The translations under genes and the position numbers were made by a program. Of a DNA stretch of 15,331 nt, positions 1,159 to 15,331 are shown one piece after another. The notes below the pieces were generated by a model. That model saw only the letters and a program-made list of their open reading frames with translations. It was not told the origin of the DNA and did no database searches. Within the stretch, counting starts at the first letter, position 1; each line of letters opens with the position of its first letter. Origin of the DNA: a virus (Duplodnaviria > Heunggongvirae > Uroviricota > Caudoviricetes); the IMG/VR virus record IMGVR_UViG_2648501437_000028; one strand, 5' to 3'.

Positions 1159-2820
1159 TTACACCCCGCTAAATTCTTCCAGTTTCTGGCGGTGGCTGTC
1201 GCTTATATCAAAAGCAAAATCCTCATGCTCTGCCTGGAATGTACCAAACGCCATCAGCGCCGCCACGCTCGGGTCTATCTTGTTCGGTGATTTTTTCTTG
1301 TTCGGCTTGATATTGGCGTTCGCGTCACTCTGCATCACGACGTTACTCATCGACCAGGACAACACCGGATCGCCACGATGCACAATCACCCTGCGGTTAA
1401 CAAAAACTTCGAACGATTTCGCCGCCGGACTGAATCTGAGGTAGGTTTGCGGGAACGGCTCCACCTCAAAACCTGCCCCCTGTAATTGCGTTCTGAGATG
1501 CGTGGCGTTCCACGTATCAAAGCCCACCAGCCTGATATTAAATTTCTCCGCGTCCTGCATGATGTCATCTCTGATCCGGTCGTAATCAATGCAGTCGCCA
1601 GGCGTTGTGCGTATCCAGCCTGCTTTAGCCCACTGACGATAGATGGCGCGGTTTTTATTGGCGGGGTTCTGTAGCTGAAATTCCGGCAGATAGTGACGGG
1701 AAACCAGCATAATGGTTTTACCGACCGGAAAGGCATAGCACACGCTGGAAATATCGCTGGTTGATGATAAGTCCAGCCCCGCGTAACACTCCTGGCCGTG
1801 TAAATCTTCCTCCGTGAACGTTCCGGCACACTCAGCCCATGCGCCGTTACCCATCCACGGGGTAGCCCCCTGGCACCAGATATTAAATCGCTTTGTCATC
1901 ATCTCCACCCACTGCGACGGAATACCCCGCGCTTTCTGGATGGTTGAGGCCAGTTTTTCACGATCGACGGAAACATCAATATTAGGGTTCGCCTTTATCC
2001 ACATCGCCGGATCATCAACCTCGTTTTCGTCGTCCAGTTCGTAAATCAGTACAAAAATTGAATCGTTAACCTCTTCGCCGTCCAGGATCTGGCAGCAATA
2101 ATCATAGTGCTGCTTACAGGCTGAAACGACGTTGCTGCCTGATGTGGTAATGGCAAATAACAGCCCTTCGGGACGTGCGCCCATCCCCAGCTCAAGCGCG
2201 GAATAAACGCCGTTATCGGGGTGCAAGTGGTATTCGTCCACGATGGAAAGGCTGGGGTTTGTTCCCTCGATGGTTGCCGCTTTTGCTGCCAGCGGCTTTA
2301 ACAGGCTGTTGCTTTTCGGGTGTATCACCTTATGCGCCTGAATATTCACCCGCCTGCGTAACGGTCGGGATAAAAGGCACATCTGACGCGCATCATCAAA
2401 GACGATCCGCGCCTGGTCACGGCTCACCGCTGCGGTGTAGATATCCTGCTGACCGTTCTCCATAATCAGAAACCAGTTAGCCAGAATCGCGGCGGTCGTG
2501 GATTTCGCATTTTTGCGCGGCACTTCGATAAAGGCGCTCGTGTATTTGCGCCGTCCGGTGGCCTTAACCTTAAAGCCGAGGATGCACGCAAAGGCGAACT
2601 GCTGCCACGGCTCCAGCTCAATGGGTCTGCCACGCATCGGTCCTTTTACGTGCGGGCACACCCTGGAAAAGGCAATAAACCGCTCCACAACCTCACGATC
2701 GAACGTGTAAAGGGGGCTTTTAAGGTCCGAAAAGTACCGTTTAACGGCCTGTTTCAGCCGTTTACAGGCCGGAATTTTGCCCGTTTTTACGTCTTCTGCG
2801 TACTTATTCCAGGCGGTCAA
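1159..2820 (-). CDS. terL: Terminase large subunit (ATPase plus nuclease)
   Basis: 553 aa; Walker A-like PRKNAKST, Walker B-like LSIVDEYH, overall terminase-like layout. Start is TTG at 2820 with GAGGA 5 nt upstream, overlapping the terS end by 17 bp. Confidence 0.85.
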   Translation of the reverse strand: MTAWNKYAEDVKTGKIPACKRLKQAVKRYFSDLKSPLYTFDREVVERFIAFSRVCPHVKGPMRGRPIELEPWQQFAFACILGFKVKATGRRKYTSAFIEVPRKNAKSTTAAILANWFLIMENGQQDIYTAAVSRDQARIVFDDARQMCLLSRPLRRRVNIQAHKVIHPKSNSLLKPLAAKAATIEGTNPSLSIVDEYHLHPDNGVYSALELGMGARPEGLLFAITTSGSNVVSACKQHYDYCCQILDGEEVNDSIFVLIYELDDENEVDDPAMWIKANPNIDVSVDREKLASTIQKARGIPSQWVEMMTKRFNIWCQGATPWMGNGAWAECAGTFTEEDLHGQECYAGLDLSSTSDISSVCYAFPVGKTIMLVSRHYLPEFQLQNPANKNRAIYRQWAKAGWIRTTPGDCIDYDRIRDDIMQDAEKFNIRLVGFDTWNATHLRTQLQGAGFEVEPFPQTYLRFSPAAKSFEVFVNRRVIVHRGDPVLSWSMSNVVMQSDANANIKPNKKKSPNKIDPSVAALMAFGTFQAEHEDFAFDISDSHRQKLEEFSGV

Positions 2821-3160
2821 GCTCGTCCTCTTCTTCTGTTTCCGGTGGGTTTTTACGGCGGCTTATCGGGTCAAAACCGAGCAAGGAGGCCATTTTTATC
2901 ATCACCCTTTCAGCGTCTGATTTCGCGCTTAATGCGGGGTTTCTGCTCTCGCCGCCCTGACTGTTAACAATGCTGAACCCGCGCGCCGCAAGGTCTGCGA
3001 CGGCTTTCCGGTAAATGGAGTAGTTGACACAATACAGTTCCAGATTGCTCCAGTCGGCGGGGGTCAGGTCTCCCCGTTCCGCAAGCTGCCGCGATTTTTC
3101 CCGCCACTGCTTCACGGCGATGTCATCCAGGTAGGCGGGGGCTTTCGGTGGTCTTGCCAT
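2804..3160 (-). CDS. terS: Terminase small subunit (P27-like size and position)
   Basis: 118 aa directly upstream of and overlapping terL, downstream of HNH; acidic C-terminus. Assigned mainly by position and size. Confidence 0.6.
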   Translation of the reverse strand: MARPPKAPAYLDDIAVKQWREKSRQLAERGDLTPADWSNLELYCVNYSIYRKAVADLAARGFSIVNSQGGESRNPALSAKSDAERVMIKMASLLGFDPISRRKNPPETEEEDELDRLE

Positions 3161-3209
3161 GCTTATTTTTCGTCAGATTATTTTTCAAAAAATTCCCGTG
3201 CATAAAAAT

Positions 3210-3275
3210 TTGAGGAGGCGTTCGGTGCCCGGCGGGGTCGGGTTTGTCCTGAAAACGCCCCCCACCCCGTCATAC
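3210..3275. other. GC-rich block in the HNH-terS intergenic region; candidate cos / terminase recognition site
   Basis: GGTGCCCGGCGGGGTCGGG...ACGCCCCCCACCCCG lies in a ~290-bp gene-free gap between HNH and terS, where HK97-type cos sites sit. Position-based inference only. Confidence 0.25.
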
Positions 3276-3448
3276 AGCCTCATCAGCGATTGCGGAAACA
3301 TTCCATAACCTCGCGGTCACGGTCGGTTAATCGCTTCGCTGTGATGCGTTCTGCGCGTCCTGACGCTTTATCTTTATGCCCTGTTTCCTGTGTCTTCCAT
3401 GCGTCACGCTGCCTTATAAGTCCACGGATAAGGCGGTTTTGTTCCCGC

Positions 3449-3889
3449 TCATTCATCAGCGTCATACATCCAGTTATTGCGGTTAGCGGCCCGTTCTTCC
3501 TCTTCACGAAATCCACCTGCGGCACGCTTGCTTTTTGTTGCCGGATCAAGCCATTTCGTTTTCTGGTTATGACACGCCTGGCACAATGGTTGATGGTTCC
3601 ATTCGGGCCAGAAGAGAACATCATCACCGCCATTAATCGGGATAATGTGATCCACCACCACGGCGGGCGTATATATCCCCTTCTCAAGGCATCGCACGCA
3701 TAACGGGTTTTTACTCAGATACATGGCGCGGTATTTGTCCCACTGTCTGGAATATCCACGCGCGCGGCGGTGTCCTCGTCTGGCATCCTCTGCACGCCAT
3801 GCCGCCCGCCTGTGCTCCTCACACTTGCCGGATTTAACGCGCCTGTTACAGCCTGGTTCTGTGCATCGTCTTAATGGTTGCCACGGCAT
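3449..3889 (-). CDS. HNH endonuclease (packaging-associated)
   Basis: 146 aa; N-terminal Cys cluster CTEPGCNRRVKSGKCEEH and HNH core CVRCL...VVDHIIP...NHQPLCQACHNQK. Its ATG overlaps the connector stop. Confidence 0.85.
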   Translation of the reverse strand: MPWQPLRRCTEPGCNRRVKSGKCEEHRRAAWRAEDARRGHRRARGYSRQWDKYRAMYLSKNPLCVRCLEKGIYTPAVVVDHIIPINGGDDVLFWPEWNHQPLCQACHNQKTKWLDPATKSKRAAGGFREEEERAANRNNWMYDADE

Positions 3890-4185
3890 CAGTACACCCC
3901 CACATCACGGTAAGCCGTCCAGAGTGCGCCTATCGTCATGGGTACGCGTGTTTTTGCGTTATCCGCGACAATCTGGCGATTTTCATACAGGTGAGCGATA
4001 AACATCATGCAGCCAATCTTTATGGCTGGCGTGAACTCCAGCCCGTCATCAAAGCGCCTGCCTATGTGTATCTGGCACGCCTCAAGCGATGCGGCAATGT
4101 ATCCGCTGATTAACTGGTCTTCATCGTCGCCATCGATGCGGCAATGGAGTTTCACTTCTTCCAGGGTGATAAGTTCTTCTGTCAT
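3889..4185 (-). CDS. Head-tail connector (gp6-like) protein
   Basis: 98 aa between adaptor and HNH; ATGA overlap with the adaptor stop. Assigned by size, position and general resemblance. Confidence 0.55.
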   Translation of the reverse strand: MTEELITLEEVKLHCRIDGDDEDQLISGYIAASLEACQIHIGRRFDDGLEFTPAIKIGCMMFIAHLYENRQIVADNAKTRVPMTIGALWTAYRDVGVY

Positions 4186-4520
4186 TTTTCCGCGCCCTCA
4201 CGACAAAGAATTTCAAGGCGTGTCCTGGCGGCATCCGGCAGCGGCTGCCCGATGATATTCAGTACACGCCCCGCCAGCGGCCCCGTACTGACCTTTATCC
4301 GGCTGGTGGCGTTGATGTCCTTCCGGTACCGTATCCAGATCCTTACGGTACCAATCGCCAGCTCTGCGCCCGATGAAATGGCCTCCTTGCTGCTGACCAT
4401 GTTCACGCTTGCCCAGAGTGTGTGACCGTCCTCCCACGTTTCGAGTATTTCGCCGGTTATATCCCTGGTCTGTTTCAGGGTCTGAATCGTTATCCTGTCA
4501 CGCAGTCGCCCTATGTTCAT
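4182..4520 (-). CDS. Head-tail adaptor / head closure protein
   Basis: ORF track gives 4182-4562; I prefer the internal ATG at 4520, which overlaps the portal TGA (ATGA) and gives a ~112-aa product. Identity is by position after portal. Confidence 0.55.
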   Translation of the reverse strand: MNIGRLRDRITIQTLKQTRDITGEILETWEDGHTLWASVNMVSSKEAISSGAELAIGTVRIWIRYRKDINATSRIKVSTGPLAGRVLNIIGQPLPDAARTRLEILCREGAEK

Positions 4521-5728
4521 TCCGGTTTTTCTCCCTCGCTGATTTTTACTTCCTGTTTCCATGCCTGGCTGAACTCATCACCACCATCACGCGGTGACAG
4601 ACCTTCACGTTCGCGGGCTTCGTTCGGACACATAACGCCGGATTTGATGCCGCGCTCATAGGTGGCAAAGCGTTCGCCAGGTGTGGCCCGTAACAGGTCC
4701 GCGCTGTCAAACTCCACCTGATACCGGATACCAGGTACAGGCGAGGCCACCAGCAGGGCGTTTTTTATCTGCTGCTCAAAGTTCGCCAGCCACGGGCGCA
4801 TCGTCATGGTGAGAAATGCGCGGCTTGCCTCGCTGAAATTGCTGTAGGTGCTGTTGCTGTATTCCTGCAAAAAAATCGGCGAGACGTTGAACATTCGGGC
4901 GATGTCTTCAATGGTGAAGCGACGGGAGGCCAGCCATTCAGCATCCTGATTACTCATGCCCAGCTGCTGATAGCTCATACCCCCTTCAAGGATGGGCGTT
5001 TTTCCGGCGTTTCTGGCCCCTTTGTAGCGTTCCAGTGCGGCTAATGCCTGTTTGCCCTTCACGCCGTCCAGCCATTCGCCTGACGTGATAACCCCTGCCG
5101 CCATCATGCCATCACGCATCACGCTCGCGCCGTGGCGTTGTTGGGCCAGCCCAAGCCCCAGCGATTCGCGGCAGATGGTTACAGGTGAGCGCCCCATAAA
5201 GCCGTCATCCGTGGAGTAACGAAGGTGAAGTACTTCCCACGGTAAATAGTTGCGGGTGTTTCCGGTGTAGGCGTCAGTGATGCAGTAGCGCCAGTTGTGT
5301 TCGCCTGTCTGCTCCACGTTCACCGACTGCGGCGGGTAAGGATGTAAAGCCGCCGGAAAACCATCACGCCCCCACTGAATCACCGCATAAGCATTACCGT
5401 TTAACAGGCAGTGGCGGATCATCATTCGCTTAAACTGGTAGGGGGTTTGCCATGCGTTCGGGCGCTCGTTGAGGATGTGATCGACCGGATGAGAATCAAG
5501 CCACTCGCGGGCCTCCTTCCCCTTCTCATTGCGTACCAGGTACAGGTAACACGGCATGGTAGCCACCGCCTCAGAGATGACCGTCACGGCGTTCATGACG
5601 GCGGGCAGTGATTCCGCTGTCCCCGATGATACGTACTCACCCGCCCCCGTGTTCGATGTGCCAGCCAGCGCCATAAATTCATCCAGCGTCATGCTGCGCT
5701 GCTCTTTTTTTCTTCTGAAAGGCCACAT
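4517..5728 (-). CDS. Portal protein, HK97-like
   Basis: 403 aa, typical portal length and composition; GGGGGTG Shine-Dalgarno 5 nt before the ATG at 5728; immediately follows the protease. Confidence 0.8.
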   Translation of the reverse strand: MWPFRRKKEQRSMTLDEFMALAGTSNTGAGEYVSSGTAESLPAVMNAVTVISEAVATMPCYLYLVRNEKGKEAREWLDSHPVDHILNERPNAWQTPYQFKRMMIRHCLLNGNAYAVIQWGRDGFPAALHPYPPQSVNVEQTGEHNWRYCITDAYTGNTRNYLPWEVLHLRYSTDDGFMGRSPVTICRESLGLGLAQQRHGASVMRDGMMAAGVITSGEWLDGVKGKQALAALERYKGARNAGKTPILEGGMSYQQLGMSNQDAEWLASRRFTIEDIARMFNVSPIFLQEYSNSTYSNFSEASRAFLTMTMRPWLANFEQQIKNALLVASPVPGIRYQVEFDSADLLRATPGERFATYERGIKSGVMCPNEAREREGLSPRDGGDEFSQAWKQEVKISEGEKPE

Positions 5729-5729
5729 A

Positions 5730-6302
5730 TCACACCCCCGCTAAATCCACCCACCAGCGGCGATTATCCGCACGCGGCATTTTTTCGGGGTGCTGCTCAT
5801 ACAGGGAACGGCGGGCCAGCTCCACGCCGGAATCGGGGTAAGCCGGTACCGATGTAACGGTAATTTCGTACAGTTCCGCCACCAGCACGGTGCGCACGCA
5901 TGGATCTGTTGTGGTATCCCATACATCCTTACGGGAGCGAAAGCCAAAGCTCATCCCCGAGATGTCCCCACGCTTAACCAGTTCGATAACGTCGCGCCCT
6001 GTACTGGTATCCGGTGGGGTCAGTTCAAAGCGTAACCCTGTTTCGTCCTCTTCCAGTTTCAGCGTGCCGGAACGGGTGCGCCCCAGTAACATGCTGTGGT
6101 CATGCTCATACAGGCCGCGAACGTCATTACCCGCCGCAAGCCACTCAGTAAACGCCCCCCGCTGGAATTTTTCGTGAAACTCCCCCCATAGCAGTTCTGA
6201 AAGCTTATCCCAGCGAACAACGTAGCCCGTCAGCGTACCGGCTCCGCTGGTAGTGATTTCCGATGACCGGATTTCCATACTCTTCATAATTTTTTCACCC
6301 AT
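5730..6302 (-). CDS. Prohead maturation protease, HK97 family
   Basis: 190 aa with the HK97-protease-like stretch GDISGMSFGF and conserved His/Ser context. Start could be 6302 or the internal ATG at 6287. Confidence 0.8.
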   Translation of the reverse strand: MGEKIMKSMEIRSSEITTSGAGTLTGYVVRWDKLSELLWGEFHEKFQRGAFTEWLAAGNDVRGLYEHDHSMLLGRTRSGTLKLEEDETGLRFELTPPDTSTGRDVIELVKRGDISGMSFGFRSRKDVWDTTTDPCVRTVLVAELYEITVTSVPAYPDSGVELARRSLYEQHPEKMPRADNRRWWVDLAGV

Positions 6303-6341: not shown

Positions 6342-7499
6342 TTAATCGTCGTCCTGTGGCAGTTCCAGAATCTTGATCGCGTTCGAATCCACCACGCCAC
6401 CGCCTAAATATTTCTGCGTGAAAATTTTGATGAAGCCCGGCTCTGTGAGGTTGTCCGGTCTGGTGCGAACACCTGTTTCGTGATCAACAATGTAGTAACC
6501 GCGTTTGAAGTCACCCAGGGCAATAACGTTATCCGGCATAAACTCCAGATATTCGACCGGAAGGCCCAGTAACGTATCAGGATCACCCGCCTGTAAACGG
6601 TCGCGCCAGATGTAATCACCGTTCGCGTTCTTCACCTTCTGAAGTTTTGCCGCCGTCGTGGAGTTAACCACCCAGACCGCGTTTTTGCGGTATTTTTTAC
6701 GTAATGCAAATTTCAGGTCGATCAGCGGGTCCGCAGATGTCCACGCCAGAGATTCGGAAGGTTTAATTACCTGCAACGTACCAAAATCACGCTCTTTGTC
6801 GTTCTTCTCTGCACGGGGTACGGATAAAAAGCCTTTTGCTTTTTTGTCACCGTCGCCCACAACCAGATCGCTTTCTTCGGTTTCCGTGAAGTTGTCGCCA
6901 ATCTCGCCCGTCAGCCATGAAAGGATGTCCACATCGGAAAAATCCACGATTTCCTGCGTGGTGCGCGGGTACGCATAGACCGGATACAGCTTAATGCTCA
7001 CCTCGTTAATCTGCGGGGTGCTGGTCTGTTCGCGTGCCTTACCCTCTTCACCGTGGTTAACGGTCGCACCGCCAGCGGAAACAAGCTGCTTAAACTCGTT
7101 GCTGCTGATTTTCTTCACGGTACAGATGCGGCGCATGGTGGATTCATCCGTCAGCATTCGCATGATTTCGGTGTTCAGTTCGGGGATAACGGTATAACCA
7201 CCATCAGCGGGAACGCCTGTACTTAATGCGCGGGTTTCACCTGTCAGAATGTAGTGACGTAGTTCGGCTGGGTCAGTGGTCTGACTGCTTTTACCTGGCT
7301 TGCTGCGCTCTTCGTCTGCAATGGCTTCAAGGCGGGAAATGTCTTTATCGAGGGATTCAGCTTTAGCGCGTAATTCGTCAAATTTTGCGCCCTCAGCATC
7401 GTTAAGACTGCGGTTTTCTTTTTCCGCGTTCTCCAGCATGTCGCGCATCTGATTTTTAATGGCGGTTTTCTGCTGGCGTAATTCGATTATTCTCGGCAT
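6342..7499 (-). CDS. Major capsid protein, HK97 fold, with N-terminal coiled-coil delta/scaffold-like domain
   Basis: 385 aa; charged, coiled-coil-like N-terminal ~100 aa (LRAKAESLDKDISRLEAIADEE) then a capsid-like body; no separate scaffold gene. Confidence 0.85.
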   Translation of the reverse strand: MPRIIELRQQKTAIKNQMRDMLENAEKENRSLNDAEGAKFDELRAKAESLDKDISRLEAIADEERSKPGKSSQTTDPAELRHYILTGETRALSTGVPADGGYTVIPELNTEIMRMLTDESTMRRICTVKKISSNEFKQLVSAGGATVNHGEEGKAREQTSTPQINEVSIKLYPVYAYPRTTQEIVDFSDVDILSWLTGEIGDNFTETEESDLVVGDGDKKAKGFLSVPRAEKNDKERDFGTLQVIKPSESLAWTSADPLIDLKFALRKKYRKNAVWVVNSTTAAKLQKVKNANGDYIWRDRLQAGDPDTLLGLPVEYLEFMPDNVIALGDFKRGYYIVDHETGVRTRPDNLTEPGFIKIFTQKYLGGGVVDSNAIKILELPQDDD

Positions 7500-7786: not shown

Positions 7787-8059
7787 TTATCTGTCCTGGT
7801 AATTTCGCCATATTTCATTACCAGCACCATCCATACCCATTTCGGCATAAGTGCGATCGACCGCCTTTTTCAGGTCTCCGTAGTTATCCGGCGGCTCCGG
7901 TGGCCTCTGTGCCTTCCTGGAACATTCCAGCCGTCGCATCGTGATGTGATGCCGTTCCTTGTCTGTCTCCACCAGTTGCATGACTTCACCCCATCGCGCC
8001 GACGCTCTCCGGTAAAAGCCTTTCGCCTCCAGTTCTTCCGCTATGCGGTCATGTACCAT
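7787..8059 (-). CDS. PerC-family transcriptional regulator-like protein
   Basis: About 90 aa from the ATG at 8059 (the track start at 8068 is GTG); AEELEAKGFYRRASARWGEVM resembles the PerC/Pch N-terminal signature; GAGGGGTGGGG Shine-Dalgarno upstream. Confidence 0.6.
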   Translation of the reverse strand: MVHDRIAEELEAKGFYRRASARWGEVMQLVETDKERHHITMRRLECSRKAQRPPEPPDNYGDLKKAVDRTYAEMGMDGAGNEIWRNYQDR

Positions 8060-8071
8060 CGTCCCCACCCC

Positions 8072-8482
8072 TCAGAACGGAATATCATCACCGTAAGGGT
8101 CATCGCCTCCCGCTGGTGGCTGATTACCCTGTGTGCCTGTGGTCTTGCGTCGGCTCCCACCAGGACGTGCCGCACGGGCACTGATTACGCTGTCTGCAAT
8201 AACCTGATAACCCTGCCGCGTTTCCCCGTTCTGTCCGGTCCACTGGCTGACCTGCATCGTGCCGGATACGCTGGCAACGTCGCCTTTTTGATGTTTAGCC
8301 AGGAAGTCGGCCTGCTTACCAAATGCGATGACCGATAGCCATAACGTCGCCTGTCCATCCTGTGCCTGGCTGCATGGCAGCGATACCGCCATACGCGCCA
8401 GCGTCATCGGTGTACCCTTGCTGGTCTGTTTTACCTGCGGGTCGTCCACCAGCCGCCCGTAAGCTGCTATCTGTGCTGTCAT
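8072..8482 (-). CDS. ssb: Single-stranded DNA-binding protein
   Basis: 136 aa; Gly/Pro/Gln-rich tail ending in the acidic DDIPF motif characteristic of SSB; ATGA overlap with the upstream gene. Confidence 0.8.
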   Translation of the reverse strand: MTAQIAAYGRLVDDPQVKQTSKGTPMTLARMAVSLPCSQAQDGQATLWLSVIAFGKQADFLAKHQKGDVASVSGTMQVSQWTGQNGETRQGYQVIADSVISARAARPGGSRRKTTGTQGNQPPAGGDDPYGDDIPF

Positions 8483-9045: not shown

Positions 9046-10800
9046 TTATAAAAACGCGTCGCACTCGTCTGTTGTTATTGCGTTAGTCTGCGTTACTCCC
9101 TTAACTTTCCGCGTAATATATTCATGTCCGTAAACTTTCGCGGCTGGCTTCATAGCCTTGCCAAAGTCATTTACGTTTAGCGGTTTGCTCCTGCCTGCGT
9201 ACGCCATAAACGCCAGATAGACGCGGTAAAGGCTGTTTCTGGTCGTGTACTTCACTGAATCGCCACCGCCGCCCATCATCAGGCCGCGTGCTTCCTCCAG
9301 AAAATTCAGGAACTGGCAAAACTCAATAACCGGATCCGTCTGTTGCTTTATTGCCAGAGCTTCATCACCGTCACGCTGTTCCAGTAGTAAAGCCCGTGCC
9401 TTCTCAGGGTCGGTAAAGTTCGCCAGCAATCGGCGGATAATGACAGGGATTTCAGCCGCGATCTTTTCCGGTAGCTCCCTGTCTTTTTCGGCCTCACTGA
9501 CGATATTGTCGAAACGGAAAATCACGCGACGACGTGCCACACCTCCGGCCCGTTCGGTGAATATCATCGGGTTATTGTTGGTCGCCAGCACCACCGCCCT
9601 GATTACCGCCGTGAAACGCTTTTCGTATTTCGGGTTAATTTCCACGGGGTCACCGCCCGTGATTTTCTTGATGCCCGTTCCTTCGCCTGTATATTTCGGC
9701 TGGTCAGCCAGGACGATAAGACGACTCCCGACAACCTGCGCACGTCCACCAGCATCATCAAGCGATGTCATTTCAGCGCTTACCGTGTTCTGTTTCCCTG
9801 CCAGAAGGCTGGCTATGTGTGTGAATGTACTTTTACCGCTCCCGCCGTCTCCGGTGGCCTCAATAAACATCTGCCAGTCGTACCGGTTCGCCATAATCAT
9901 GTACAGCGCGGCACATATACGCATCATCTTGCGCGGGTCTTTTCCGGCTGCGTGCTCAAGCCATTTATGAAAGTTTGGCGCGTTATCGCGGATGTTCTCC
10001 CCTGGTGCTGGTGGCGTGTACTCAATGCCGTTGTGCGTGGTGATCCAGTTCTCCGGCGTGTGCGGGGAAAATTCCCCCGTTTTCAGGTCAAGCGCACCAT
10101 TGGCGAACGGCAACAAATCGCCGGACGGCTCGCCCATTGGTTCGGCAATAACTTTTAACGCTTCCACGGCGTTATTGATTACGCGCTTGCTGAAAGTGGC
10201 CCTGTGCTCTGAATAGATCGCCACCATTTCGCGGCTAAGTTCCATTGTGCTGACCGGACACCATACCCCGCCGCGCCATACGTGAACGATTTCACTTTCA
10301 GGATGTACGCAAACGCCATCAAAGCGATCGGCAAGCAGCTGCGCGCGCTCACTGTCCGCCATCTGCGAAAGTTGCGCCTTTTGCTTTACCGGAAGCTCAA
10401 TGACCAGACCATCAGAAAGATTCTGGCGCTCACGGGCCAGATATTCGCGCCAGTTCTCCACCTTCTGACCGTGCATACCATCAGGGTAAAAATTTGCATC
10501 CTGTACGCCTGCCGCCGCCAGCTTCTGACCAATCGCCTTTATCATTACTGGCGCAAGATATCCGGCCCTGAATATGCGCACGGATTTTCTGCCTTCCGGC
10601 ACAATTTGCAGCTTATCCAGTTCGGATAACTGCTGCTCCCCAAGCCACACAGGAGGCTCATTATCTCCGGCCATACGCGCGTCATGTTCCTGCCATTGTT
10701 TTGCGTGTGACCAGGCATCACTACCCGCAAAAATAATGACTTCTGTTTCTTTGTGTTTTATGCCGCGTGACTGCTGTTTTACGTTCGGTGCCAGTTTCAT
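9046..10800 (-). CDS. Primase/helicase, P4-alpha-like (TOPRIM-like N-terminus plus SF3/D5-type NTPase)
   Basis: 584 aa; Walker A GDGGSGKST, Walker B-like LIVLADQ; N-terminal acidic primase-like segment; ATGA overlap with the upstream gene. Confidence 0.8.
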   Translation of the reverse strand: MKLAPNVKQQSRGIKHKETEVIIFAGSDAWSHAKQWQEHDARMAGDNEPPVWLGEQQLSELDKLQIVPEGRKSVRIFRAGYLAPVMIKAIGQKLAAAGVQDANFYPDGMHGQKVENWREYLARERQNLSDGLVIELPVKQKAQLSQMADSERAQLLADRFDGVCVHPESEIVHVWRGGVWCPVSTMELSREMVAIYSEHRATFSKRVINNAVEALKVIAEPMGEPSGDLLPFANGALDLKTGEFSPHTPENWITTHNGIEYTPPAPGENIRDNAPNFHKWLEHAAGKDPRKMMRICAALYMIMANRYDWQMFIEATGDGGSGKSTFTHIASLLAGKQNTVSAEMTSLDDAGGRAQVVGSRLIVLADQPKYTGEGTGIKKITGGDPVEINPKYEKRFTAVIRAVVLATNNNPMIFTERAGGVARRRVIFRFDNIVSEAEKDRELPEKIAAEIPVIIRRLLANFTDPEKARALLLEQRDGDEALAIKQQTDPVIEFCQFLNFLEEARGLMMGGGGDSVKYTTRNSLYRVYLAFMAYAGRSKPLNVNDFGKAMKPAAKVYGHEYITRKVKGVTQTNAITTDECDAFL

Positions 10801-13559: not shown

Positions 13560-13748
13560 TTAATGAACTGCCTTGCAGCTATCCTTCCAGGCCAGAACCT
13601 CGGATAAAGACCAGCCAACGGAACGACCGCCAAGTTTACGACGTGATGGGAATTGTCCGGCCTTTTCCAGGCGGTAGCGACACGTACGGCTAAGGCCGGT
13701 TAGTTTTTCGCATTCTTTTTCACGTATAAACCGATCAGTGCTTAACAC
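13560..13748 (-). CDS. alpA: AlpA/Vis-family (excisionase-like) regulator
   Basis: LTGLSRTCRYRLEKAGQFPSRRKLGGRSVGWSLSEVLAWK matches the AlpA-type winged-HTH pattern. I prefer the GTG start at 13748 (AGGGGGG 5 nt upstream, ~62 aa) over the track TTG start at 13829. Confidence 0.7.
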   Translation of the reverse strand: MLSTDRFIREKECEKLTGLSRTCRYRLEKAGQFPSRRKLGGRSVGWSLSEVLAWKDSCKAVH

Positions 13749-14020
13749 TATTGCCCCCCTTTCGTTTCTTAAAGAGTCATCAGGTGTCTTATTGTGTCGT
13801 ATTGTTCCCGCTAGAGTGATGAATGGCAAATACTGAGGATGTATGATTTACAGAAAATGAAACAGTAAGAATAAAATCTTTTAAATTCATGTTAATACAA
13901 AGGCATAAAATATTGTTCCATGCCTTTTTTCTCGCTCTTTAAAGAGTGATTCGCTAGTGTACAAAAAACCAGTAACACATTAAAAATCAGCTACTTATAA
14001 ATCCGTACGCTTTTTCGCCT

Positions 14021-14113: not shown

Positions 14114-15331
14114 TTATTTTCTTCTGGCTACGGGTAGCGTGGTTACGTTTTCATGTGTTCCCGCCAGTATCCCTAACCGCTCCGTCCACATATCCAGCGC
14201 ATTGCGTTTCGCATCCAGATAACGGGAATGATTATAAACTCGCTGCATTCCTGGCATCTGGTGGCCTGTAAGCTGCTCCACGACATGCGGATCAACGCCT
14301 AAATCGTTCAGCATGGTTGTAAAGGTGCGCCGGATGTCATGCAGTGACCAGTGAGGGTGATTAAGCCTCCTGTGCGCTAATCTTCCATACTGCGATACGC
14401 TGGCCTCCTGTTTCACTTCCCCCAGCAATAAGCCCGTGTGCCTGTTCTGCTCCACCAGCTGCGTGACGAACGGCAGGATCGCTTCCGGTATGGGCCGGAA
14501 TATTGCGACCTTCGTTTTGCTGTGCTCCTTCGGAACGGTCCATAGCATTTCCGTAAAATCCCACTCCCCGATCTCCGATAACCTCAGTTCTACCGTTCTG
14601 GCTCCGAAGACAATCAGGAGGCGGATTAACGCGACGTAGTAAGGGGAGAATATTTTTTTGTCCAGTGCCTGCAATAATTCGCCAAGTTCTTTGTTACTTA
14701 AGACACGTTCGCTTATATCCGGTTTTTTCCCAACGTCCGCAACGTTCAGATCGTCCAGAACGTTGCTGATTGCATAGCGCCGCCTACGGCAGAACTTAAG
14801 CGCCTGTTTGCACGCCTGTAGCACGAATCCGGCAGTAACAGGCGTTCGCTTTGCCACCTGGTCAAAACAGGCCAGCCAGTGCCGTAGCTCGCATTTATCC
14901 AGCGGCATAGCACCAATCTGCTGTATTACGTGATTATTAAGTCGCCTTTTCAGGGCGATATAATCCACGCGGTTTTCCTTTACGTAATACTCAAGCCAGT
15001 AGGTGAGCGCATCGCCAACCGTTACGGGCTTTAACGCTTCCTGTACGGTGTAATTCATCTCATGACGTGGATTTTTCCCCTCAGCCAGCCATGTGCGACA
15101 CTGTGCGGCTTTTTCCCTGGCTGCTTTCAGGCTCAGATCAGGATAACTTCCCAGCTTAATGCGTTCGGGTCGTGTCTCCCTTCCCGTTCCGGCCCTGTAT
15201 GTGAAATACCAGGTCAATTTCCCTGATGTTAAATATTTCACGCTCAGGTTTCCGCCATCACTATAAAACGTGTTTTTCTCCGCTGGCTTACCATGAAGTT
15301 TCCTTAGCAAGGTATCGCTCAGTTTGTTCAT
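14114..15331 (-). CDS. int: Tyrosine integrase (P4-like phage integrase family)
   Basis: 405 aa; C-terminal catalytic signature HDIRRT ... H ... RVYNHSRY (R, H-x-x-R, Tyr nucleophile); ATG is exactly at the window end. Confidence 0.9.
   Translation of the reverse strand: MNKLSDTLLRKLHGKPAEKNTFYSDGGNLSVKYLTSGKLTWYFTYRAGTGRETRPERIKLGSYPDLSLKAAREKAAQCRTWLAEGKNPRHEMNYTVQEALKPVTVGDALTYWLEYYVKENRVDYIALKRRLNNHVIQQIGAMPLDKCELRHWLACFDQVAKRTPVTAGFVLQACKQALKFCRRRRYAISNVLDDLNVADVGKKPDISERVLSNKELGELLQALDKKIFSPYYVALIRLLIVFGARTVELRLSEIGEWDFTEMLWTVPKEHSKTKVAIFRPIPEAILPFVTQLVEQNRHTGLLLGEVKQEASVSQYGRLAHRRLNHPHWSLHDIRRTFTTMLNDLGVDPHVVEQLTGHQMPGMQRVYNHSRYLDAKRNALDMWTERLGILAGTHENVTTLPVARRK

Follow-up and report, generated by a model that had tools for sequence, protein, structure and literature searches.

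A probable cos site in the HNH-terS spacer of an Escherichia coli capsid-forming PICI

The window analysed here is a stretch of 15,331 nt (IMG/VR record IMGVR_UViG_2648501437_000028) in which all relevant genes lie on the minus strand. Listed from the integrase towards the terminase genes, they are the following.

14114-15331, minus strand: integrase (Pfam)
13560-13829, minus strand: AlpA (Pfam)
9046-10800, minus strand: D5-like primase (Pfam)
8072-8482, minus strand: SSB (Pfam)
7787-8068, minus strand: PerC (Pfam)
6342-7499, minus strand: major capsid protein (Pfam)
5730-6302, minus strand: prohead protease (Pfam)
4517-5728, minus strand: portal protein (Pfam)
4182-4562, minus strand: head completion protein (Pfam)
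3889-4185, minus strand: connector (Pfam)
3449-3889, minus strand: HNH endonuclease, 146 aa (PF01844, E = 1.8e-8; phrog_144, E = 8e-45)
3283-3465, minus strand: 60-aa protein of phrog_3173 (PGAP WP_000174068.1; phrog_3173, E = 7.5e-37)
2804-3160, minus strand: TerS, 118 aa, of the P27/Terminase_4 family (PF05119, E = 1.3e-23; phrog_83)
1159-2820, minus strand: TerL, 553 aa (PF03354 and PF20441)

The window represents an EcCIEDL933-like capsid-forming PICI (cf-PICI) of E. coli. Elements of the EcCIEDL933 type span ~10-18 kb and carry an integrase, AlpA and a replication module together with capsid, protease, portal, connector, HNH, terS and terL genes in that order, without tail or lysis genes (bioRxiv 10.1101/2022.09.08.507074). 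The Pfam assignments reproduce this gene set and order, and over the whole window they include neither tail nor lysis genes. The 1.1-kb HNH-terS stretch, as searched, is 100% identical to the chromosome of E. coli FORC_069, where the element is integrated in tqsA, and it is present in 515 of the 5,426 complete E. coli genomes; in the HNH-terS region, identity to the window is 97.8% for strains of O157:H7, the serotype to which EDL933 belongs. According to published work, cf-PICIs package their DNA with cohesive ends, and helper-phage induction, satellite-encoded small capsids and the use of helper tails have been reported only for EcCIEDL933, KpCIDSM30104 and their relatives (bioRxiv 10.1101/2022.09.08.507074; 10.1101/2025.02.11.637232). 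At the far end of the window, between the ORF at 864-1145 and the tqsA remnant, the non-coding region 145-860 is densely packed at 451-618 with imperfect inverted repeats nested in one another, with arms at 499-531/537-569, 451-476/480-505 and 581-599/600-618 and including the palindrome CCCAAATTTGGG. The repeat region has no Rfam match and could represent att/integrase arm sites, an origin-like region or a structured RNA.

The HNH protein shares 39% identity with HK97 gp74 and 37% with SfV orf53, and by this sequence relationship it appears to be the packaging-associated HNH that lies upstream of cos. An HNH-dependent cos would be expected between the HNH and terS genes, and the window presents the HNH gene (3449-3889), a spacer, TerS (2804-3160) and TerL (1159-2820) in this order. 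The preliminary description had placed a candidate cos in the interval between HNH and TerS, taken to be about 290 bp long and gene-free. The flanking genes are indeed HNH and TerS and the distance between them is 288 bp; the interval is not gene-free, as a conserved 60-aa gene at 3283-3465 on the minus strand occupies ~63% of it and overlaps the 3' end of the HNH gene by 17 nt. Because 3283-3465 is coding, the true non-coding spacer is reduced to 122 bp, at 3161-3282. A longer TerS that would shorten the spacer from the other side was considered and is ruled out by an in-frame TGA at 3175-3173.

The 60-aa protein is conserved in ~20 of the 31 related species loci, in which both its N-terminus and its ..RDRE..ECFRNR C-terminus are kept, and the relatives in Aeromonas, Citrobacter and Xenorhabdus lack the gene. 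The only phage records that contain it are cf-PICI-like ones. In the satellite it lies between HNH and cos, a place where SfV has no such gene. The protein is basic and may be a satellite-specific packaging accessory.

The GC-rich block at 3225-3270 that had drawn attention to the interval is real, with 71.7% GC as compared with 51.2% window-wide, a GC content reached by just 0.4% of 46-nt windows. An AT-rich stretch follows at 3161-3214 (27.8% GC). The anatomy of the spacer was resolved by comparing 33 TerS-encoding loci from species-representative genomes (among them Klebsiella, Citrobacter, Enterobacter, Kosakonia, Serratia, Erwinia, Pantoea, Xenorhabdus, Pectobacterium, Aeromonas and others), with a further 160 IMG/VR loci added to the spacer comparison. 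The blocks below are read on the minus strand with +1 at 3214, and their identities are mean pairwise values over 24 Enterobacterales/Aeromonas species in an ungapped register (the sequences were also aligned).

3268-3256, minus strand: G-box, GGGGTGGGGGGCG, about -54..-42 relative to the predicted left end; identity 0.81
3255-3243, minus strand: TTTTCAGGACAAA block adjoining the G-box, -41..-29; identity 0.78
3242-3231, minus strand: hypervariable 12-nt segment of fixed length, CCCGACCCCGCC, -28..-17; identity 0.40
3230-3225, minus strand: GGGCAC, -16..-11; identity 0.80, a value that includes the last hypervariable base
3224-3215, minus strand: C-rich 10-mer CGAACGCCTC, the predicted cohesive end, -10..-1; identity 0.82
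3214-3203, minus strand: CTCAAATTTTTA, +1..+12; identity 0.95
3202-3196, minus strand: TGCACGG, +13..+19; identity 0.82
3195-3176, minus strand: GAATTTTTTGAAAAATAATC, +20..+39; identity 0.79

The conserved boxes thus range from 0.78 to 0.95 in identity, as against 0.87, 0.90 and 0.55 for the first, second and third codon positions of TerS. The 12-nt hypervariable segment (0.40) varies even more than the third codon positions, yet its register is kept. The spacing on both sides is similarly constrained: of the 147 unique sequences, 104 have the base that interrupts the G-box at exactly -50, and in 127 the second T-tract begins at +22. The boxes show no 3-nt codon periodicity (0.85/0.79/0.83 by phase), and therefore the constraint acts on the DNA itself. 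In identity, periodicity and spacing alike the spacer behaves as a non-coding sequence under purifying selection with fixed spacing, and both conserved motifs occur once in the window, where 0 are expected by chance. In many elements the hypervariable segment is rich in C, and in some its sequence complements the G-box (window 3231-3242 and the same columns in loci L084-L113). The G-box was also considered as an inverted copy of the cohesive end, a relationship that is perfect over 8 nt in SfV and partial in the window; this was set aside since it shows no clear covariation.

It is extremely unlikely that the conservation stems from a small overlapping ORF running across the spacer, such as the one at 3185-3301 (minus strand; 38 aa, 47 aa in Klebsiella). 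Such a frame, GVGEVFRT...LKFLRT.., does stay open through the boxes in 86 of the 118 unique sequences, but G/C-rich frames with T-tracts stay open by composition alone. The third position is not relaxed, and +1..+12 is ~95% identical at every position. Starts and stops are inconsistent, the most open frame lacks a start codon in 35 of the 118 sequences, and Xenorhabdus relatives retain the boxes with the frame closed.

The closest counterparts of the spacer are the cos regions of the SfV group of phages. BLAST of the spacer against phage records retrieves only cf-PICI-like records and one 1.6-kb fragment, and its likeness to SfV, ST64B and HK97 becomes visible only when the ends of the records are read directly. 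The cohesive end of SfI was defined by run-off sequencing of its virion DNA, in which a gap of 10 nt, TGCCCGCCCC, remained (PMC3636060). The packaging genes and cos of SfI match those of SfV, and direct reading of the record ends locates TGCCCGCCCC at the ST64B junction and, in the SfV record, at nt 8-17. Arranged in the same way, the cos regions read as follows.

ST64B: GGGAAGGGGCGGG, 31 nt, TGCCCGCCCC, CTCGAATTTTTATACCCGCG
SfV: GGGGAGGGGCGGG, 31 nt, TGCCCGCCCC, ATCGTTTTTTTA
KpCIDSM30104 (homologous cf-PICI): GGGGTGGGGGAGG, 31 nt, CACCCGCCCC, CTCAAATTTTTTCGCACGG
Window: GGGGTGGGGGGCG, 31 nt, CGAACGCCTC, CTCAAATTTTTATGCACGG

The phage order of a G-run, 31 nt, TGCCCGCCCC and CTCGAATTTTTA, seen in ST64B, SfV and SfI, is colinear with the cf-PICI order of GGGGTGGGGGAGG, 31 nt, C[AG]CCCGCCCC and CTCAAATTTTTA. 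In ST64B CTCGAATTTTTA takes the place of the satellite's CTCAAATTTTTA, and the layout that SfV/ST64B-type phages and satellites have in common can be summarised as a G-run, ~31 nt, a C-rich 10-mer and a C/ATC(G/A)A/T-tract. The SfI sequence together with its ST64B/SfV flanks aligns with window positions 3224-3215 and with the cf-PICI consensus for the 10-mer, C[AG]CCCGCCCC. The GC-rich block, which had been regarded as typical of a cohesive-end region, is only in part of this nature: its C-rich portion does align with the SfI end, but the block as a whole is a composite of G-box, variable spacer and cohesive end.

The HNH gene lies just upstream of cos in the SfV group (SfV, SfI, SfII, SfIV and ST64B), as it does in the satellite, and the SfV gene order across its joined ends (HNH, cos, terS, terL) is that of the window. 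The TerS proteins of ST64B, SfV and SfI belong to the same phrog_83/PF05119 family as the satellite protein, which is 36% identical to SfV TerS. There are also differences. The window 10-mer departs from the SfI sequence at four of ten positions, and from +13 onwards phage and satellite part company, TGCACGGGAATTTTTTGAAAAATAA in the former standing against TACCCGCGAAAAATGAAATTTAACC in the latter. Of SfV TerS (164 aa), only residues 55-144 can be aligned with the satellite protein (118 aa), which is without ~41 N-terminal residues of its phage counterpart and begins with a short basic MARPPK arm. The difference from +13 onwards would allow a TerS specificity separate from that of SfV/ST64B-type phages.

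A second, more distant parallel is offered by HK97, whose gene order of HNH (gp74), cos, terS (gp1) and terL (gp2) is the same as that of the satellite. HK97 generates a 10-nt 3' overhang and its TerS binds at +15..+29, a region that includes an A-tract from +23 (PMC11331095). An HK97 G-run lies ~32 nt before the terminal 10 nt, and the G-runs of the satellite, SfV and ST64B are found at the same distance. The satellite likewise has an A/T-tract with a preceding G/C at about +21..+30, where HK97 TerS binds, although its GA-T-tract begins one base earlier than that of HK97. The cohesive-end sequence and +1..+14 of HK97 are, however, unrelated to those of the satellite. The window TerS has no detectable sequence similarity to HK97 gp1 (E = 2.4) and falls in a different PHROG. 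Because the TerS proteins are unrelated in sequence, the resemblance between the two cos regions is one of design and not of family. Specific binding of TerS downstream of the cut and stimulation of TerL cleavage by HNH are known only for HK97, and the HK97 binding-site model may be carried over to the satellite TerS by analogy only.

Physical ends are available for a homologous satellite. The record LR881103 (LR881103.1, locus L002 in the comparison), deposited under the name 'Escherichia phage vB_KppS-Ant', is the cf-PICI KpCIDSM30104; the accompanying paper calls it a filamentous ssDNA prophage (PMC8006926), and the 2.3-kb gene after terL is annotated as a tape measure protein. The DNA came from a lysate/particle preparation on K. 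pneumoniae DSM 30104, and its sequence from a Nextera XT library assembled with SPAdes (PMC8006926). Its gene order is terS, terL ... int ... capsid ... HNH and a small ORF; with terS first and HNH last, it therefore represents the excised form, permuted through att. The record is linear and breaks exactly in the HNH-terS spacer, ending in the block beside the G-box at ...TTTTCAGGAC and restarting at ACGAAAAGG, so that exactly 69 bp of the spacer are missing. On both sides of the gap it matches the copy in the chromosome of K. pneumoniae ATCC 13883 (= DSM 30104) at 100% identity. By homology, the gap would place the cut at the window equivalent of 3245-3174. With the cut at its predicted position, the two ends of vB_KppS-Ant would be short by 21-31 nt and 38-48 nt. 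Tagmentation libraries are expected to lose a few tens of bases at each linear DNA end. In principle the 69-bp gap might have arisen during assembly. From a circular or permuted template one would expect a terminal overlap and not a gap.

Contig ends were also scanned in IMG/VR, using the TerS protein and the Box-2 DNA pattern, and in public assemblies, using TerS; integrated copies make up nearly all of the hits. None of the 120 viral-contig matches, which are mostly integrated copies, ends at the predicted site. The only two matches that lie near a locus end (L170 and L211) prove on reading to be cut elsewhere than at the predicted site.

A rival proposal is that the spacer is a pac site, at which packaging starts and is followed by headful cutting to give permuted, terminally redundant ends. 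TerS recognition sites near terS are typical of pac phages too, and the cos assignment for the window element is made by homology. Against this, the vB_KppS-Ant assembly has unique ends and a gap where a pac mechanism would leave terminal overlap, and the packaged DNA of KpCIDSM30104 is reported to re-anneal into concatemers via cohesive ends (bioRxiv 10.1101/2025.02.11.637232). As an HNH partner is moreover a hallmark of HK97-type cos terminases and the C-rich 10-mer aligns with the mapped cohesive end of SfI, a pac site is very unlikely.

Only slightly less improbable is the idea that the boxes govern terS-terL transcription, as a promoter, operator, terminator or antiterminator site, and that cos lies elsewhere. 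The spacer is directly upstream of terS and has A/T-rich tracts, and in the window element a weak hairpin can be drawn between 3233-3242 and 3260-3269. The 3' arm of this hairpin falls in the hypervariable segment, and the hairpin was consequently rejected as a conserved feature, being specific to the window. The gene strand of the spacer has no promoter-like or terminator-like site, its fold is no better than that of shuffled sequence (z = -0.59) and no Rfam family matches it. Transcription signals would also leave unexplained why the genomes of SfV and HK97 have the same architecture at their physical ends and why packaged KpCIDSM30104 DNA breaks within the spacer.

The conserved boxes, the colinear phage cos regions, the SfI end and the break in KpCIDSM30104 together bear out by homology the earlier placement of cos in the HNH-terS spacer. 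The 122 bp at 3161-3282 are thus probably the cos of the cf-PICI, HNH-dependent and of the SfV/ST64B type with an HK97-like layout. There is a similarly good likelihood that cos lies within 3174-3268. The alignment to TGCCCGCCCC of SfI is the reason for taking the C-rich 10-mer at 3224-3215 as the satellite cohesive end, and the chance that it is the exact end is about even. The window 10-mer departs from the family consensus at three of ten positions and is polymorphic within E. coli, where CGAACGCCTC, CGACCGCCTC and CGACCGCCCC all occur, and for this reason the exact nick sites are uncertain. By analogy with the phages, the polarity would be that of a 10-nt 3' overhang.

In the mechanism proposed here, the satellite TerS would, after excision and replication, bind the A/T-rich block at about 3214-3176, just upstream of terS; the block (+1..+39) is accordingly a putative TerS-binding, cosB-like region. 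TerL, stimulated by HNH, would then introduce staggered nicks around 3224-3215 (CGAACGCCTC) to create 10-nt 3' cohesive ends. Packaging would proceed from the terS side, around the unit-length element and into satellite-made capsids, and would stop at the next cos, with the G-box acting as an upstream element some three helical turns before the cut. The G-box may serve in termination as a cosQ-like sequence or may position HNH/TerL. The nick positions, the assignment of boxes to proteins and the direction of packaging are all deduced in this scheme. Like P4, SaPIbov5 and the Rpp-type E. coli PICIs, the element would be a satellite packaged at unit length and bounded by cos; those satellites use the helper's cos or a redirected helper TerS with the helper terminase, whereas the window element has its own HNH, TerS and TerL.

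A search of the literature and of sequence records found no mapped cos for any cf-PICI, EcCIEDL933 included. Published work already implies that cf-PICIs have a private cos on which their own HNH, TerS and TerL act; what is new here is its refined location and a testable architecture, not its existence, and the understanding of cf-PICIs is not altered by the location of cos. The cf-PICIs spread between species through self-packaging and borrow only tails, and cos is the signal that makes self-packaging specific. A location of ~100 bp with a predicted 10-nt end offers a direct target for mutagenesis, and a site of this size could serve as a minimal cassette for cos-plasmid transduction or for engineered delivery particles. 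The signature that runs from the G-box to CTCAAATTTTTA can furthermore be used to search for such satellites and to recognise where their virome contigs truly end.

A broader and rather doubtful reading joins two propositions. According to the first, a tripartite layout is general to HNH-dependent cos sites and common to HK97 and to phages and satellites with a P27-family TerS: a G-box, a ~31-bp spacer constrained in length and free in sequence, a C-rich cohesive end of 10 nt and an A/T-tract in phase. The G-box would here be an element recognised by the HNH protein or a termination element. According to the second, the satellite would have kept a helper-like cut-site core while diverging at +13..+39 and shortening the N-terminus of its TerS, which would make its packaging and that of SfV/ST64B-like phages mutually exclusive.

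A close relative of the window TerS also turns up in a much larger record. Positions 90644-90958 of PQ569648.1 (Klebsiella phage P12620-1, 106.5 kb) encode an unannotated TerS that is 80% identical to that of the window, and which may be a satellite sequence that was co-assembled with the phage record or is carried in it.
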